A stretch of 64,000 nucleotides of DNA from Escherichia phage vB_EcoM_G2133: sequence record MK327928.1, one strand, 5' to 3'. Positions 2,484 through 56,717 of the stretch are shown here, piece after piece; within the stretch, counting starts at the first letter, position 1, and each line of letters starts with the position of its first letter. Both the position numbers and the translations under genes were made by a program. A model generated the notes under the pieces. It made no database searches. It was not told where the DNA came from and saw only the letters and a program-made list of their open reading frames with translations.

Positions 2484-2513
2484 ATTATACCACATCCTTG
2501 TGGTAAAGTAAAC
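2484..2513 (-). promoter_or_regulatory. T4-type early promoter (GTTTAC, 18-bp spacer, TATAAT)
   Basis: minus strand GTTTAC (2513..2508) and TATAAT (2489..2484) preceded by tgg. Confidence 0.6.
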
Positions 2514-4333
2514 TACTGGCTCATCCATTCTTTACGAAGGTCAGCATTATCTCCCATAAGCATTTCAAAAAGCTCTTTCCAATTCTCAGGAAGTTTAACA
2601 ACATCATATACTGGGTTTTGAATCATCTCACGATATTCAGATTTTTCCAAAGAGCCAAGTCCTTTAATATAACGGATGCTATGTTTAGGTAGAGCATCTT
2701 TGGCACTCTCATATTCAGCGACTGTATAAAACCATTCTTGTTTTTTACCGACCTGAGCGATGATTACAGGAGTTTTGACAAAGCGAATTCGTCCTTGTTC
2801 AAATAGTTCTGGCCAATTACTAAAAAATCCGAGCAGAGAAGGATAAATGCTTCCTAGACCATCATGGTCAGCATCAGTCATAATAGCAATATTGCGATAA
2901 TTCAAGTTTTCAGCTTTTTCACCAAGAACTAGACCAGTGATTGCGCAAATATCAAATAGTTCTTTGTTTTTAAGCATATCAGCATATGACATACCCCAAC
3001 TGTTGAGAACTTTACCACGTAATGGATAACCACCATGAAGTTCTTTATCACGAACATCAATAAGATAGCCGATAGCAGAATCACCCTCAGTCAAGAAAAG
3101 AGTAGTATCAGCATCTTTACCGCAAAGATTCGCTTTAATATGTTTATGAACCTTAGCTTTAGAAGCCTTTTTAGCTGCTTTAGTTTCTGCTGCTTTTTCT
3201 GCCGCCAATTTACGAGCCAAAGCAGCTTCAATAATCGGCATTAGAATTGCTTCATTATTTAGAATAGCGCGTGAAATCTTTTTAGCATCAAGCTGAATAT
3301 GACTACGAATTTCGCCAAATGGAGAAGTCAAACACTCTTTAGTTTGAGAATCAAATCGCATGTTTTTCATATCACGAACAAACATAACGATAATCAAACA
3401 TTCTTTGACACGCGCTTTAGTTACATCAATTTTGAACTTACGTTTGATTTGTGGAATAAGGTCTTCACAAATATCATCCATAACACAATCAATGTGATGG
3501 CCACCATTCTTAGTGTGAATGTTATTCACATAAGTTAATTGACGAAAACCATCCGGTGAACGACCAACCGCAATAGAACAATTTTCTTGCTCTTGGACGA
3601 TAGCATGCTCATCATATTGGCGTGCATATTTCTTAAAATTGCCCTGAACCTTTTTACCATTAAAGGTAAATTGAATATCAGGATAAACAACAGCAAGTGT
3701 CTGGAGACGATCCAGTGTAATGTCAAGATAAACTTGGGACAGCTCATTAGTTTCAAATGACATAAAATCAGGAATGAAAGTAACACGAGTTCCTTTCCAT
3801 TTTCCAGGAATATCTTCCCATGATTTATTTTCCATGCCATTTGAACAACGAACTACAATATTATTTTGACCATCACCAGTTTCACCGACAAACATCACAG
3901 AAAAAATGTTTGTCAAACTAGAACCAACACCGTTCATACCACCAGTGACGCGTTCTTTATCATCACCAAAGTTACCACCTGCTTTTGGAATAGTCCAGGC
4001 AGCAACTGGACCAGGAATTTCTTCACCGGTAGGTGTTTTAACCATCGCCTGTGGAATACCACGACCGTTATCTTCAACTGTTACTTGATTGTTTTTAATA
4101 GTAACATTAATTTTATTTGCGAATTTAAACTTAGTACGAATACCTTCATCTACTGAGTTATCGATAATTTCATCAATAAGCTTAACAAGACCAGGTACAT
4201 ACTGAACACTTTCCCATTTACCAAACAGAAAGCGCTCATGCATTTCATTAGCAGAAGAGCCAATGTACATGCCACTACGCTTTTTGATATGTTCAATATC
4301 GCTCAGAATTTTAATTTCATTCTTAATCATCAC
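2513..4333 (-). CDS. 39: DNA topoisomerase II large subunit gp39 (ATPase plus Toprim), uninterrupted
   Basis: 606-aa ORF; N-terminus MIKNEIKILSDIEHIKKRSGMYIGS; Toprim LTEGDSA; DNGRGIP ATPase motif. Confidence 0.85.
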   Translation of the reverse strand: MMIKNEIKILSDIEHIKKRSGMYIGSSANEMHERFLFGKWESVQYVPGLVKLIDEIIDNSVDEGIRTKFKFANKINVTIKNNQVTVEDNGRGIPQAMVKTPTGEEIPGPVAAWTIPKAGGNFGDDKERVTGGMNGVGSSLTNIFSVMFVGETGDGQNNIVVRCSNGMENKSWEDIPGKWKGTRVTFIPDFMSFETNELSQVYLDITLDRLQTLAVVYPDIQFTFNGKKVQGNFKKYARQYDEHAIVQEQENCSIAVGRSPDGFRQLTYVNNIHTKNGGHHIDCVMDDICEDLIPQIKRKFKIDVTKARVKECLIIVMFVRDMKNMRFDSQTKECLTSPFGEIRSHIQLDAKKISRAILNNEAILMPIIEAALARKLAAEKAAETKAAKKASKAKVHKHIKANLCGKDADTTLFLTEGDSAIGYLIDVRDKELHGGYPLRGKVLNSWGMSYADMLKNKELFDICAITGLVLGEKAENLNYRNIAIMTDADHDGLGSIYPSLLGFFSNWPELFEQGRIRFVKTPVIIAQVGKKQEWFYTVAEYESAKDALPKHSIRYIKGLGSLEKSEYREMIQNPVYDVVKLPENWKELFEMLMGDNADLRKEWMSQ

Positions 4334-4357: not shown

Positions 4358-4382
4358 ATTATACTCCAATATTCATAAAGCT
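4358..4382 (-). promoter_or_regulatory. MotA-dependent middle promoter for gene 39 (aGCTTTA box, 12-bp spacer, TATAAT)
   Basis: minus strand aGCTTTA-tgaatattggag-TATAAT, about 25 nt upstream of the gp39 ATG with GAGGA ribosome-binding site. Confidence 0.5.
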
Positions 4383-4400
4383 AAAGGCCCGAAGGCCTTT
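4383..4400 (-). terminator. stem-loop with UUCG tetraloop (aaaggcc-uucg-ggccuuu)
   Basis: 7-bp stem and 4-nt loop at the 3' end of ORF 4400..4669. Confidence 0.5.
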
Positions 4401-4669
4401 TATTTAAAACGGATAGTCGAATCCTTAAAGAACAGCCCAGAACATACTGTTCCTTCTACTTTCTGCCCGGTAGGTCCAATAGCACGAAATCCAGTATGTT
4501 GGAAATCATTTTCAGAGCAACCGAACCAGTTATATCCAGTGATTTCAATATTAGTAAAACCGCTTGAAGATAAAACTTTGGTTGCATTATCAGCATCAGT
4601 ACATCCTACTAAAGATACTGCTAATACTAATGCTGCGATAGAACGATTAATATATTTCATAATTTTCAC
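4400..4669 (-). CDS. predicted lipoprotein
   Basis: 89 aa; signal peptide with lipobox LVGC. Confidence 0.5.
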   Translation of the reverse strand: MKIMKYINRSIAALVLAVSLVGCTDADNATKVLSSSGFTNIEITGYNWFGCSENDFQHTGFRAIGPTGQKVEGTVCSGLFFKDSTIRFK

Positions 4670-5037
4670 TTAAATTTAATGGCTTGAAGAAGACTAATAA
4701 CTCTCAAGCGACTTCTTTCATCTTTAACTGTAAAGGAAAGAGGGTCACCAGATTTCATAGTGATAGTACATGCAAAATCAAAATCTTCTGTGATTTCTTC
4801 GAAGAAGTCAAATTCTTCATCATAAATTAGAACACTACTTTGCAGACTGTGAAGAGTTTTTCCAGCATTTCCAGATGCTGTACCAATCATTGTAACATTA
4901 TGACCTTTCATATCTTCAACGATAAATTCACTAGTCAATATTACAGCATTAATAGAACTATTCCTATTACTAGCAGAAAGTAGAAATTTCTGTTCTTCAC
5001 CTTCGCGAATACGATATTTCTTACCCATTTTAAACAT
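4666..5037 (-). CDS. hypothetical protein
   Basis: 123-aa ORF in the operon, stop abuts next start. Confidence 0.45.
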   Translation of the reverse strand: MFKMGKKYRIREGEEQKFLLSASNRNSSINAVILTSEFIVEDMKGHNVTMIGTASGNAGKTLHSLQSSVLIYDEEFDFFEEITEDFDFACTITMKSGDPLSFTVKDERSRLRVISLLQAIKFK

Positions 5038-5218: not shown

Positions 5219-5644
5219 TTATTCCTTAAAGTGTGCTTTCAGCATCTGATACAAAGACCATGCCTGTTCATTATTTTCAATAGTAACTTTCATGACCGGG
5301 AATTCTGTGAAATCTTCTATTTGTTCTTGCTCTTTCTCTTCCTGCTCTTGCTCTCCAGATGCCTGATATGGATTTTCCACTTCATCAAAGAACCCAGCTT
5401 CGTTAGTAGAAAGCCAGATAAAGTTTTCGTCAAGGATATCACCATGTGTTGCGTATCCAACCATGCCAGTAGATGTCACAATTTTAGTAGGACGCCCAAG
5501 ATAATCAGCATCTAAAATTTTAAAAGGTTCCATACCTAAACGCCGTGCGTAGATTCCGTTATCAGTATGGTCTTTAATAAAATTTTCTTGAGCTTGTTTA
5601 TTTTTAAATTGATACCATTTATTAACTTCAAATTTAATAGCCAT
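5219..5644 (-). CDS. hypothetical protein (goF-like by size and position)
   Basis: 141-aa ORF, acidic [11 protein letters not shown] stretch. Confidence 0.4.
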
Positions 5645-11764: not shown

Positions 11765-11820
11765 AACTTTATGAAAAATGCTTTAAAACTTTCATGGTAT
11801 AATGAATCTAAGTCCTTCCA

Positions 11821-12423
11821 TTATAGATTAAATCCTTCAAAATCAAGAGTATAGATAGTGTATGTTGAATACTTTTTGTACTCATATCTATCTGCAATTC
11901 TAAATACACTTCCAGCTGGTATCATTACTTCTTGTTCATCTGAAACTAATTCCATATTACGATAACGATGGCTATCTGGAAACTTAAAGTTTGGATTGTA
12001 TTCTTTACAGCGTAGAGCTTTTATAGCATACTCCTGGAAATTGAATACCATAGGAGCTTTGAATTCAAAAATAACTTGTGTGTTATATTCTAAACCAGAA
12101 GCAAAATGTAGAGCTATATTTTTATCATATGAAGCTGATACTACTTTATCAAATGTAATAATATCAATTCCTTGATTTAACACCTGCTTAGTCTCAGCTG
12201 GAACACCTCTCCAAAGAGGTTTATCGTTTGGAACCAAACGAGATTTGATTATTTCATTTAACCAAGTATGGTCATCTGGTTTATTAGTAATACAATGAAT
12301 TAAAAGTTCAATTTCAGATAAATTAAACCCTTCAGAAAGTAATTCTTCACGAATAGAAGCACGCACCGATGCATCCATTGATTTTATTTTAAAATCTTTT
12401 AGTTGCATTACCGAGTATTTCAT
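11821..12423 (-). CDS. modA: ModA-like ADP-ribosyltransferase
   Basis: 200 aa, size and position match T4 modA; paralog of the next ORF. Confidence 0.55.
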   Translation of the reverse strand: MKYSVMQLKDFKIKSMDASVRASIREELLSEGFNLSEIELLIHCITNKPDDHTWLNEIIKSRLVPNDKPLWRGVPAETKQVLNQGIDIITFDKVVSASYDKNIALHFASGLEYNTQVIFEFKAPMVFNFQEYAIKALRCKEYNPNFKFPDSHRYRNMELVSDEQEVMIPAGSVFRIADRYEYKKYSTYTIYTLDFEGFNL

Positions 12424-15215: not shown

Positions 15216-15237
15216 AAGGACTCCCGAAGGAGTCCTT
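15216..15237 (-). terminator. stem-loop with UUCG tetraloop downstream of soc
   Basis: aaggactcc-cgaa-ggagtcctt, 9-bp stem. Confidence 0.55.
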
Positions 15238-25478: not shown

Positions 25479-25566
25479 AGTTTTGTGAAAAATTTTTTAG
25501 GGAATTCTAAAGGTCCAGAATCATCTGTTTTTCATAAGTATAGATTTATATTACTTGTATGAAAAA

Positions 25567-25582
25567 GGGACCCGGAGGTCCC
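25567..25582 (-). terminator. stem-loop gggacc-cgga-ggtccc downstream of gene 43
   Basis: 6-bp G/C stem, 4-nt loop, 14 nt after the gp43 stop. Confidence 0.5.
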
Positions 25583-25595
25583 TAGATTTATTCTA

Positions 25596-28292: not shown

Positions 28293-28350
28293 AGATATTC
28301 CTTAGTTTATAGCCCGAGTTATTAGGCTCTTGATATATTATACTCCAAAT

Positions 28351-28368
28351 AAGGGGCCGAAGCCCCTT
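28351..28368 (-). terminator. stem-loop aaggggc-cgaa-gcccctt downstream of regA
   Basis: 7-bp stem, 4-nt loop, followed on the minus strand by ggagTATAAT. Confidence 0.5.
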
Positions 28369-34473: not shown

Positions 34474-34708
34474 CCTTAATACAAGATACAGCCATATCTC
34501 GTAATGATTTAGGCGTGTCATTATCTAAAATGTTGAAGTTAAAAGATACAGCCCAATCAGTGCAGACTGTAACCTTTTTAATATAATTATCTTCAACCTC
34601 TAGTGGTTCAAACCAGTATTCAATAATTTCTTTATGACCAATATCATCTTTTACTTCGCATTCAAAATGCTGACTCATCATAACATTTTTAAATTCATCA
34701 AAAGTCAT
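34445..34708 (-). CDS. hypothetical protein
   Basis: 87-aa ORF immediately downstream of gene 47. Confidence 0.45.
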   Translation of the reverse strand: MTFDEFKNVMMSQHFECEVKDDIGHKEIIEYWFEPLEVEDNYIKKVTVCTDWAVSFNFNILDNDTPKSLRDMAVSCIKDAYCEVFDI

Positions 34709-35724
34709 TGTGTTGCCTCTACATATAACTGATTTGCATATTGAATAAGTGCTTCACGGTCAGAATCAGTGATGTCTGGAATTGCATTAATGTATTCTTC
34801 CATCAATGTCTGAAGCGATTGAACTTCAACTTCTTCACTGTTATCTGACTCGACAGAGTTATCAATCTTTGACACAACTCGTAATGAATGCACAACTTTT
34901 TCTAGTTCAGATTCGAACTTCGTCAGATTTTTGTCTACTTCAGTTACTATAACACGTACTGATAGATTTGTAAAATCTTTATAGTCAATTTTTCCTTTAA
35001 ATGGATAATGAATTCTACGATGCCAGGTAGTATTGTTTGGAATAAATTCCATTCGTTCTGTTTCTGTATCAAACATCCAGAACCCGCGAGGGTCATTCTC
35101 GTCACCTGCTGTTAGTGTCCATGGTGTCCCAATATATCTGACGTTAGCAGCCTCAGAAATAGTATGGAAGTGACCAGACCACACTTCTTTATAAGTCTTA
35201 AGGAAATCAGGTTCAAGACCATGAGATTTCATTCCTTTATAAAAATAAAATCCATTCAGTTCCCAGTGACCAACACAAAAAGAAGCAGATGAAGTTTTGA
35301 TGTGCTCAAGAATTTCACCAGTATTTTCTTCGCACATCCAAGGAATCAAATCAATCAAACACCCGTCAAAATCTACTGTAGTAGGCTTATCATATACTTT
35401 AACATTAGGATATTTAGCCAAAAGCTCAGTAGAAGCATTTGGAGTTAAAGTATTTTTAAAGTGCATATCATGGTTTCCTACAACAGTATGTAGGGTAATA
35501 CCAGCATCATCAAGCATTTGAACTATTTCACGAGCGAACTCCATAGTTTTATGCGTGATTGCTTTTCGCACATCAAAAATATCGCCGTATTGAATCCATG
35601 TAGTAATTTCATTTTTCTTAGAATATTCTATGGCTTGTTTAATTCCATCCAACTGAATGGATTGAACCCACTCATCATCGGCTTTAACGCCTAAATGCCA
35701 ATCACCTAAATTTAAAATTTTCAT
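34705..35724 (-). CDS. 47: recombination nuclease subunit gp47 (Mre11/SbcD-like)
   Basis: 339 aa; phosphoesterase motifs LGDWHLG, GDIFD, GNHD. Confidence 0.85.
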   Translation of the reverse strand: MKILNLGDWHLGVKADDEWVQSIQLDGIKQAIEYSKKNEITTWIQYGDIFDVRKAITHKTMEFAREIVQMLDDAGITLHTVVGNHDMHFKNTLTPNASTELLAKYPNVKVYDKPTTVDFDGCLIDLIPWMCEENTGEILEHIKTSSASFCVGHWELNGFYFYKGMKSHGLEPDFLKTYKEVWSGHFHTISEAANVRYIGTPWTLTAGDENDPRGFWMFDTETERMEFIPNNTTWHRRIHYPFKGKIDYKDFTNLSVRVIVTEVDKNLTKFESELEKVVHSLRVVSKIDNSVESDNSEEVEVQSLQTLMEEYINAIPDITDSDREALIQYANQLYVEATQ

Positions 35725-35859
35725 ATATCAAGAACCGTCATTGAAATGCAAAATAAAATTATTGAAATAAATCCATCTGGAGTGCTAAAGAACCCAATCC
35801 AACATGCTCTAGTGAATAGATAAAATGCAAGAAAAAGTATCACATATCCAAGAAATATC

Positions 35860-35883
35860 ATTATATCAAACTCCGTATAAAGC
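35860..35883 (-). promoter_or_regulatory. MotA-dependent middle promoter for gene 47 (aGCTTTA, 12-bp spacer, TATAAT)
   Basis: minus strand aGCTTTAtacggagtttgaTATAAT immediately 3' of hairpin 35885..35902. Confidence 0.45.
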
Positions 35884-35884
35884 T

Positions 35885-35902
35885 AAAGGGCCGAAGCCCT
35901 TT
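35885..35902 (-). terminator. stem-loop aaagggc-cgaa-gcccttt at the alpha-gt stop
   Basis: 7-bp stem, UUCG loop on the minus-strand RNA. Confidence 0.5.
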
Positions 35903-37103
35903 ATTTTGTAATAATGTCAAACTGTTCTTTAAAGCAGAAGCTTGAATCTTGATGTTGATACAAAAATTCATACGCTTTTTCACGTTCGCGGTCATAAAGA
36001 GCTCGGTCAGATGACAGTTCTTTAATACGCTCAAACGTTGATTCCATATCATTTTCATCAAACCAAATGATACCGCTATCATGCGAGGTCAAAGGAGTAT
36101 TATCAACACGGAATTTTAAATTTTCGCCAGTAGATTTCCAAAATACCGGAATTGTTCCACATGCACCAAGCTCGAGATGAGTATATTCTAAAGAACGCTG
36201 TAGATATTTTTTATCCAACTTACTCAGCTGATAACCAAATCCGGATTTACTCATGCGTTCAAGCATTTCGCTATTTACATAACGGTCAAGAATTTGCGTT
36301 GGCAAATTAGGAGCAATTTTAATTTGGTCTACTTGATGAAGACGATAATACTCGTATGGAATTCCTTTTTCTTTAATAGGAATGAACGCTGGAGAACGTT
36401 CCAGACCTTCCATAATAGTACTTAGTCCTGCAGGTTTAAGATGTTTTTCATGAAAATCAAACATCTGATAAAAACCTTTCCATGTAGTCGTACGACCAAT
36501 CCAACGGTTGATATTCATGTTAATTTCAGAAACATCTTTCCAGTAGGTTGATCGAACCTTCGCAATATCCATAGGAGGCTGAAAGTTATATACTGTCGGC
36601 GCTTCTTCAATATCATCAAACAGAGAAACTGTTTCCGGATACCATTCTTTCATCAGAACTTTATTAAAATCGCCATTATCAGAATGGCTAAAAATAACAT
36701 CAGCTCGACGAACAGTTTCTTCTAATCCCAAATTTCGACGCAAAGAAAGAGAAGAATGGTCATGCTGATAAACTACAACACGAACAGAAGGTTTAATGTT
36801 ATCAATAATTTTTTTATAGTTATTAATAGTGTCTTCTTCAACCGAAGTAGCAGGAACTGAATTGATAATTAGAATATCACAATCATTTACCAGCTTAAGT
36901 GTTTTATCGTATTCTTTTGCCAATAAAACCGGAATTGAAAATGATTTATAATCATGCGCGCAATTACGAGTAAATGATTTATCTTTAGCATAAACCAAAG
37001 TCACTTCATGACCATTTTTAATAAACCAATCACGTTGCTCGAGTGAGAATTTAGTTACACCACAACCTTCAAGACCTCGAGCCATAAAAATACATACTTT
37101 CAT
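35901..37103 (-). CDS. agt: DNA alpha-glucosyltransferase
   Basis: 400-aa ORF, MKVCIFMARGLEGCGVTKFSLEQRDWF. Confidence 0.75.
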   Translation of the reverse strand: MKVCIFMARGLEGCGVTKFSLEQRDWFIKNGHEVTLVYAKDKSFTRNCAHDYKSFSIPVLLAKEYDKTLKLVNDCDILIINSVPATSVEEDTINNYKKIIDNIKPSVRVVVYQHDHSSLSLRRNLGLEETVRRADVIFSHSDNGDFNKVLMKEWYPETVSLFDDIEEAPTVYNFQPPMDIAKVRSTYWKDVSEINMNINRWIGRTTTWKGFYQMFDFHEKHLKPAGLSTIMEGLERSPAFIPIKEKGIPYEYYRLHQVDQIKIAPNLPTQILDRYVNSEMLERMSKSGFGYQLSKLDKKYLQRSLEYTHLELGACGTIPVFWKSTGENLKFRVDNTPLTSHDSGIIWFDENDMESTFERIKELSSDRALYDREREKAYEFLYQHQDSSFCFKEQFDIITK

Positions 37104-37153
37104 TTAATATCCTCTTTGTTTTGGTTTATTTTACCAAAAATTTATAAAGCAAT

Positions 37154-37173
37154 ATAGGAGCCGAAGCTCCTAT
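37154..37173 (-). terminator. stem-loop ataggagc-cgaa-gctcctat
   Basis: 8-bp stem, overlaps stop of small ORF 37170..37286. Confidence 0.5.
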
Positions 37174-52824: not shown

Positions 52825-52854
52825 AACTTTGTGACGTCATTTTAAACAAAAAAA

Positions 52855-52870
52855 GGAGCCCGAAGGCTCC
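52855..52870 (-). terminator. stem-loop ggagcc-cgaa-ggctcc
   Basis: 6-bp stem, UUCG loop, after the stop of ORF 52874..53884. Confidence 0.5.
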
Positions 52871-52873
52871 CTA

Positions 52874-56699: not shown

Positions 56700-56717
56700 A
56701 GTCTCCCGAAGGAGACT
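56700..56717 (-). terminator. stem-loop agtctcc-cgaa-ggagact
   Basis: 7-bp stem, UUCG loop, 5 nt after the stop of ORF 56722..57108. Confidence 0.5.

Follow-up and report, generated by a model that had tools for sequence, protein, structure and literature searches.

Two hairpin-promoter modules

We analysed a stretch of 64,000 nucleotides from Escherichia phage vB_EcoM_G2133 (MK327928.1), which we call the window. The window belongs to a Tequatrovirus: RB32, RB33, T6, VEc74 and many other genomes of this genus match it at ~97-98% identity. Two short modules lie on its minus strand, one in front of gene 39 and one in front of 47.1 and gene 47. In both modules the parts follow each other in the same order: a stop codon with an A-run, a GC stem, a UUCG loop, the returning stem, AGCTTTA, 12 bp and TATAAT. 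Site 1 (4400-4358, minus) reads AAAGGCC-TTCG-GGCCTTT A GCTTTA tgaatattggag TATAAT. Site 2 (35902-35860, minus) reads AAAGGGC-TTCG-GCCCTTT A GCTTTA tacggagtttga TATAAT. A sequence-only reading of the window had reported the coordinates, strand, UUCG loop, 12-bp spacing and TATAAT of both sites, and all of these match to the base.

Site 1 lies between ORF 39.1 (4400..4669, minus, 89 aa) and gene 39 (2513..4330, minus), the large subunit of DNA topoisomerase II in its fused 60plus39 type. Hairpin 1, AAAGGCC-UUCG-GGCCUUU, occupies 4383..4400 on the minus strand, with its loop at 4393-4390. The 39.1 stop codon (TAA, 4402-4400) enters the hairpin: its last base is the first A of the stem. The MotA box of promoter P39, TTTAGCTTTA, covers 4376..4385 (minus), and its first three T double as the 3' end of the stem. 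The -10 hexamer TATAAT (4358..4363, minus) stands 12 bp past the box, with GGAG in the spacer (4367-4364, minus) and a predicted start at G 4351. A leader of 21 nt with the Shine-Dalgarno sequence GAGG then leads to the ATG of gene 39 at 4330, the gene that P39 serves.

This phage differs from T4 around site 1 and elsewhere: gene 39 is fused, mobB is missing, 39.1 is longer and there is an extra ORF upstream. Gene 39 is a single ORF of 605 codons, without the gene 60 split, the bypass hairpin or the mobA seen in T4. ORF 39.1 has 65 aa in T4 instead of 89. The extra ORF (4666-5037, 123 aa) lies between a 39.2-like ORF and 39.1 and is absent from T4. Hence, the region upstream of hairpin 1 is variable.

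Site 2 follows a-gt (alpha-glucosyltransferase, 35901..37103, minus), which has this module downstream and a third module, described below, upstream. Hairpin 2, UAAAGGGC-UUCG-GCCCUUUA, occupies 35884..35903 (minus, loop 35895-35892), and the a-gt stop codon TAA (35903-35901) lies inside its 5' arm. The MotA box of P47, again TTTAGCTTTA (35878..35887, minus), overlaps the 3' arm. The -10 hexamer TATAAT is at 35860..35865 (minus) and the predicted start is T 35853. The two modules had been placed upstream of gp39 and gp47, respectively. Gene 39 is next after site 1, but the next ORF after site 2 is 47.1 (35721..35861, minus), a predicted membrane protein of 46 aa that is conserved in Dhakavirus. 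Gene 47 (34705..35724, minus), a subunit of the recombination endonuclease and the conserved gene served by P47, starts only at 35724. Its ATG overlaps the 47.1 stop codon, and a ribosome-binding site of its own is not obvious.

At P47 the promoter shares its sequence with the start codon of 47.1 and with the ribosome-binding site of this ORF, which is a RegB target. The ATG of 47.1 (35861-35859) lies inside the -10 hexamer, as TATAATG, and therefore upstream of the P47 start (~35853). Thus 47.1 is encoded only by early RNA that reads through the site. The GGAG in the P47 spacer (35871..35874, minus) is the Shine-Dalgarno sequence of 47.1 and, on read-through early RNA, a RegB cleavage motif. 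In T4, RegB cleaves the GGAG of 47.1 moderately (Durand 2006, PMC1702504).

The T-run between the GC stem and GCTTTA has several roles at once. It extends the stem by pairing with the A-run and the stop codon, it starts the U-tail, and it supplies the (a/t)3 flank of the MotA box.

Likeness of the two sites

The modules are not a chance product of base composition. GCTTTA-N12-TATAAT occurs four times in the window, and 0.05 occurrences are expected from dinucleotide shuffles. The 25-mer AAAGGSCTTCGGSCCTTTAGCTTTA occurs twice and its expected number is 0.00. An exact 22-mer search in IMG/VR found Tequatrovirus contigs only, at these same two loci.

The sequence-only reading called the modules nearly identical. 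This is right for the first 26 nt (24/26 alike), where both mismatches belong to a single compensatory flip of a C-G pair to a G-C pair in the stem. It is too strong for the whole 43-mers, which agree at 32 of 43 positions, with 2 of 11 alike in the rest of the spacer. By inspection, the flanks of the two sites show no likeness. Hence, sites 1 and 2 are alike in their functional motifs only. A recent duplication of a larger segment is ruled out, because the likeness does not extend beyond the modules and is missing from the spacers.

The promoters are orthologues of T4 P39 and P47

MotA-dependent promoters are defined by the box wwwTGCTTtA, a spacer of 12 +/- 1 bp and TAtaaT (PMC2988021). At both sites the box TTTAGCTTTA has one deviation (A for T) and an exact GCTTTA core, and TATAAT follows exactly 12 bp past it. 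A scan for sigma-70 -35/-10 pairs lists neither site. Ergo there is no usable -35.

In T4 (AF158101), all 43 nt of site 2 are identical and site 1 differs in 3 spacer bases. P39 and P47 of T4 hold the same genomic position as our sites, upstream of gene 39 and of 47.1/47, and we find no functional difference between the T4 modules and those in the window. Hinton 2010 (PMC2988021, Table 1) compiles 58 T4 middle promoters whose starts have been mapped. According to this table, P39 starts at 5349 (citing Guild et al. 1988) and P47 at 36576 (citing Guild et al. 1988, Hsu & Karam 1990). Each start lies exactly 7 nt past the TATAAT of the matching T4 module, at a base that corresponds to G 4351 or T 35853 of the window. 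Seven Tequatrovirus copies of the P39 module vary in the spacer only.

The claim of MotA-box middle promoters is thus borne out by two T4 promoters that are mapped and MotA-dependent: judged by sequence, the promoter halves of sites 1 and 2 are the orthologues of P39 and P47. The same dependence on MotA would be expected in this phage. The genes motA and asiA lie outside the 64-kb window (~161-163.6 kb in T4), and this phage presumably encodes both, as its ~97-98% identical relatives do.

An exact GCTTTA-N12-TATAAT also stands on the plus strand at 11780-11803. T4 has it too, at 11867 between srd and modA, and the 58 middle promoters listed for T4 do not include it. It may be a middle promoter in antisense or divergent orientation, or it may have arisen by chance.

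The hairpins as RNA elements

On the transcribed strand both sites form GC-rich stem-loops, with stems of 7-8 bp, four G-C pairs and a tetraloop. Folding 27-nt stretches gives -10.7 kcal/mol for hairpin 1 and -11.8 kcal/mol for hairpin 2. Folds of the whole 81-nt regions have weak z-scores (-1.4 to -2.0), and these folds give no evidence of a larger conserved structure beyond the short hairpin. At gathering thresholds, Rfam gave no match anywhere in the window; no curated RNA family covers the hairpins.

UUCG hairpins are strongly biased by strand. The window has ten on the minus (transcribed) strand, with GC-rich stems of 6-9 bp, and two weak, AT-rich ones on the plus strand; across the whole T4 genome the strands carry 17 and 3. 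All ten minus-strand hairpins, both sites included, have the loop closed by a C-G pair (C-UUCG-G). Hairpins of this class in T4 mRNA are where the unusually stable C(UUCG)G tetraloop was originally discovered (Tuerk et al. 1988, according to PMC4371310), and UUCG is frequent in the intergenic stem-loops of T4, terminators among them (PMC1702504). Sites 1 and 2 resemble the T4 C(UUCG)G hairpins in their GC-rich stem, their C-G-closed UUCG and their intergenic position right after a stop codon.

The stems are kept while their sequences change. In an alignment of 12 hairpins, taken from the window and from related phages, pairing holds in 94.8% of cells, and both sides have changed in 7 of 8 pairs; the set mixes orthologues and paralogues, leaves out the misaligned gene-47 hairpin of Erwinia phage Cronus and, since it was picked as hairpins, leans towards structure. 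None of 500 shuffles of these 12 hairpins reached the observed percentage paired or the observed covariation score.

The U-tract is the weak part of the structure. The minus-strand tail at both sites is UUUAGCUUUAU, a short and interrupted U-tract in which, counted by hand, about 4 of the 8 bases next to the full stem are T. The tail breaks after three U because it enters the MotA box, which sets sites 1 and 2 apart from the T4 intrinsic terminators (PMC2988022; PMC1702504). A simple terminator scan (at least 5 T in the 8 bases past the stem) calls neither site on the minus strand. Hence, termination may be weak or absent here. We dropped the filing of the two hairpins as canonical intrinsic terminators for the same reason.

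A terminator or RNA-stability element had been proposed for the two hairpins. The fold is indeed stable and the Mosigvirus orthologue is annotated as a terminator, but the U-tract is too weak for the simple consensus. A literature search for T4 3'-end, Term-seq or RNA-seq boundary data yielded nothing usable for sites 1 and 2. We infer that the two hairpins are probably leaky terminators or 3'-end protectors.

Hairpin 2 (35884-35903) passes the terminator scan on the plus strand only, where its tail is TTTTGTAATA, and could also stop antisense (late-direction) transcription. Elsewhere in the window, AGGGACC-UCCG-GGUCCCU followed by UUUU (25566-25583) is a terminator-like hairpin with a UNCG tetraloop, called by the scan on both strands.

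A third module and other hairpin-promoter composites

The second copy of the module is real, but the repeat is not limited to two loci. A third module lies upstream of a-gt (37128..37173) and is the orthologue of T4 PmobB (Pa-gt.1). Its hairpin, AUAGGAGC-UUCG-GCUCCUAU (37173-37154, minus), passes the same terminator scan. It is followed by the MotA box ATTGCTTTA (37153-37145, minus), an 11-bp spacer and the -10 hexamer TAAAAT (37133-37128, minus). This phage has no mobB homing-endonuclease gene. Hence, the promoter of the third module serves a-gt directly.

Among the 58 listed T4 middle promoters, four (P39, P47, PmobB and P43) have a UUCG hairpin that ends at most 35 nt upstream of the start. 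Measured from the T4 start site, the 3' end of the hairpin is at -32 for P39, at -31 for P47 and at -33 for PmobB. At P43 it is at -19, so that the hairpin overlaps the promoter. In the orthologue of P43 in the window (28330-28368, minus), AAGGGGC-UUCG-GCCCCUU ends only 8 nt before TATAAT. Thus the hairpin fills the place where the MotA box is expected. The loop with its closing pairs, GCTTCG, resembles the core GCTT(t/c)A, but it lies 15 bp from the -10.

Hairpins of this kind also precede promoters of other classes. Three UUCG hairpins on the minus strand (15216-15237, 52853-52872 and 56700-56717) have good U-tracts. T4-type early promoters (GTTTAC-N17-TAnnnT) lie 14-28 nt past them; those that go with the hairpins at 15237, 52870 and 56717 are of the type GTTTAC-N17-TATAAT. 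We class these three as PeSL-like cassettes, that is, stem-loops with early promoters. In T4 (AF158101, ~125564), the stem of site 1 (AAAGGCC-UUCG-GGCCUUU) is followed at once by the late-promoter motif TATAAATA, and identical hairpin sequences recur at unrelated loci. Since hairpins precede middle, early and late promoters, the general rule is a terminator-like hairpin followed by the promoter of the next unit, whatever its class.

Comparison across T4-like genera

We compared the regions upstream of genes 39 and 47 in T4-like contigs from IMG/VR and in named representatives. In front of gene 39, Mosigvirus (p000v/ATK48) has AAGGGC-UUCG-GCCCUU, TTTGCTTTA, 12 bp and TAGAAT, and two further lineages share this layout, their loop being UUCG or UUAG. 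In Erwinia phage Cronus, AAAGGCC-GCAA-GGCCUUU is followed by TTGCTTTA. The stems of the orthologous gene-39 hairpins vary with pairing kept, and the loops are UUCG, UUAG or GCAA. Karamvirus-like Enterobacter and Klebsiella phages, among others, keep the MotA box and the -10 without a hairpin. ORF 39.1 is absent in Mosigvirus.

In front of gene 47, JS98/IME281 (Dhakavirus) has AAAGGAGC-UUAG-GCUCCUUU, TTTGCTTTA and TAAAAT, and two lineages have the promoter without a hairpin. Altogether, P39 or P47 orthologues without a hairpin occur in several genera (loci L017-L020, L025, L032 and L033). Cronus (L039) has a different hairpin before gene 47 and no promoter after it. About 80 nt upstream of its gene 47, the 3' end of a-gt contains a perfect GCTTTA-N13-TATAAT. 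This different hairpin, AGCCCGG-ACCU-CCGGGCU with UUUU, comes after it, so that the parts stand in the opposite order to those of the T-even module.

Hairpin and promoter thus each occur alone in relatives, which makes them two separable elements that are packed together. The proposal of a coupled element has to be restricted accordingly: the parts do occur together, but coupling is not required.

Where both parts are present, their phasing is tight. In all eight hairpin-bearing modules that we examined, from four lineages (Tequatrovirus, Mosigvirus, Dhakavirus and Erwinia phage Cronus), 4-6 T-rich nt separate the end of the GC stem from GCTT. In Mosigvirus and Dhakavirus, 5-6 U follow the orthologous hairpins (UUUUU in Mosigvirus). 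In the ATK48 (Mosigvirus) record, the orthologous hairpin is annotated, on an ARNold prediction, as a putative terminator.

A probable leaky terminator followed by a middle promoter

In our view, each site very probably consists of two independent and already characterised T4 elements in a very short intergenic gap. The C(UUCG)G hairpin would form on the RNA of the upstream early unit (39.1 or a-gt), starting from within the stop codon. Most likely it would act as a leaky intrinsic terminator and as a barrier to exonucleases at the 3' end. It would lower, without abolishing, early read-through into gene 39 or 47.1/47. A MotA/AsiA-dependent (sigma-appropriation) promoter would come directly next, with its MotA box centred near -30. 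Once MotA and AsiA have been made, P39 and P47 would set transcription going again for genes 39 and 47, which serve replication and recombination.

This mechanism fits the two-pathway model of T4 middle genes, in which the extension of early transcripts is combined with middle promoters being activated (PMC2988021). It also fits the case of mobE and nrdB in T4, which is a precedent for the suggested arrangement of a terminator and a middle promoter. There, ~30% of transcripts end at the mobE terminator, and nrdB has its middle promoter downstream of it (PMC2988022). As at sites 1 and 2, a weak terminator is combined with a downstream middle promoter that secures an essential gene. The mobE terminator, however, lies in the mobE coding region, apart from the promoter, whereas the elements in the window abut and share a T-run.

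The sequence-only observation is real, non-random and functional. Both interpretations that it offered, a terminator or RNA-stability element with a middle promoter and a recombination-prone regulatory cassette, are essentially right. Everything essential about the modules is already in the T4 literature. Hence, the modules are already known. They are ordinary, previously described punctuation of tightly packed genes in T4-like phages, and their importance beyond correct annotation is small. A reading made without tools has recovered textbook elements of T4, P39 and P47 together with the UUCG hairpins that precede them.

Termination itself is where the leaky-terminator explanation may be challenged. 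The hairpin may be purely post-transcriptional, with near-complete read-through: it would protect the 3' end after an endonucleolytic cut (by RegB at the spacer GGAG, or by RNase E), or it would be a folding nucleus. The weak U-tract at both sites agrees with this, as does the GGAG that lies 12-19 nt past the hairpin at both sites. The moderate cleavage of the 47.1 GGAG by RegB in T4 (PMC1702504) and the expression of 47.1, which is possible from read-through RNA only, point the same way. Yet the orthologous hairpins of Mosigvirus and Dhakavirus, with their 5-6 U, are called terminators, and comparable weak T4 terminators still stop ~30% of transcripts (PMC2988022). At site 1, moreover, the GGAG is followed by UAUAAUAUUCC, which departs in several positions from the RegB optimum GGAGAAUAAAA while keeping A at 6, 8 and 9. 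We consider a purely post-transcriptional hairpin unlikely.

Alternatively, the hairpin may be mechanistically coupled to the promoter. It could act on the DNA as an insulator or as an auxiliary MotA site, with the palindrome or its loop sequence GCTTCG as the site, or polymerase with MotA and AsiA, positioned over the U-tract, could modulate how early transcription arriving there terminates. The constant phasing of 4-6 T-rich nt across eight modules would be expected from such coupling, and so would P43, where the hairpin with its GCTTCG loop overlaps the expected position of the MotA box. However, the phasing is accounted for by genome compaction and the shared T-run. Most middle promoters do without the hairpin as well (54 of the 58 listed in T4 have no adjacent UUCG hairpin), P39 and P47 orthologues lack it in several genera, and Cronus gene 47 has a hairpin with no promoter after it. 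Together, these observations leave coupling very improbable.

A bolder reading takes up the same phasing. As the stem always ends 4-6 T-rich nt before GCTT, the MotA box itself would form the U-tract of the terminator. Such a module would be an early-to-middle hand-over switch. The hairpin with its UUUAGCUUUA tail would leak early polymerase into 39 or 47.1/47, and once polymerase with MotA and AsiA sits on the same DNA, it would not only start transcription there but also block early transcription that arrives, or terminate it. We think it improbable that the modules work in this way, or that modules of the PmSL type (see below) actively move a-gt among T-even phages.

Hairpin-promoter modules as possible sites of cassette exchange

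The idea of a recombination-prone regulatory cassette has a published counterpart. In T4-like phages, PeSLs (cassettes of a stem-loop and an early promoter) mediate indels and form mini-circles (Arbiol 2010, PMC2839356). PmSLs, in which a Mot box and a -10 stand behind the stem-loop, were named in Vibrio phage nt-1 (Comeau 2014, PMC4122927). The modules in the window share with both a stem-loop directly upstream of a promoter, a short gap, repetition, and a location near indels or variable genes. In PMC2839356 and PMC4122927, only PeSLs (early promoters) are listed for the T4/PST pair, and PmSLs are described in Vibrio phage nt-1. Compared with the PmSLs of nt-1, the modules in the window (Tequatrovirus) have a stem that abuts the Mot box and no AT-rich linker.

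The PmSL layout is present three times in the window, at 4400, 35903 and 37173. The modules at 37173 and 35903 also bound an indel. JS98/IME281 (Dhakavirus) lacks a-gt and has a single module between a-gt.2 and 47.1. JS98-type sequence is homologous to the window as far as 37143, inside module 3, and again from 35817, shortly after module 2.

The modules may thus be mobile regulatory cassettes of the PmSL type, whose stem-loops and MotA boxes offer patches of homology for recombination to swap, insert or delete the gene next to them (a-gt, 39.1). Duplication or gene conversion, and not convergence, would then account for the two copies. Besides the a-gt indel, the gene content upstream of hairpin 1, which varies between T4, this phage and Mosigvirus, is in line with such exchange. 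Sites 1 and 2 also share 24 of 26 nt, including the non-consensus A before GCTTTA. Against this, the common stretch is short (~26 nt) and nearly every position in it is functionally constrained, which leaves room for convergence, and the spacers (2/11 alike) and, by inspection, the flanks are dissimilar. The a-gt indel itself reveals neither direction nor mechanism. Taken as a whole, mobile cassettes with copies of common descent are conceivable but, on balance, doubtful. They are compatible with a leaky terminator followed by a middle promoter.

The comparison does support a role of the modules as an evolutionary junction at which cassettes may be exchanged. The gene a-gt, which serves DNA modification, is an indel with a module of the PmSL type on either side, and the PmSL layout, named in a Vibrio phage, extends to Tequatrovirus, Mosigvirus, Dhakavirus and Erwinia phage Cronus.
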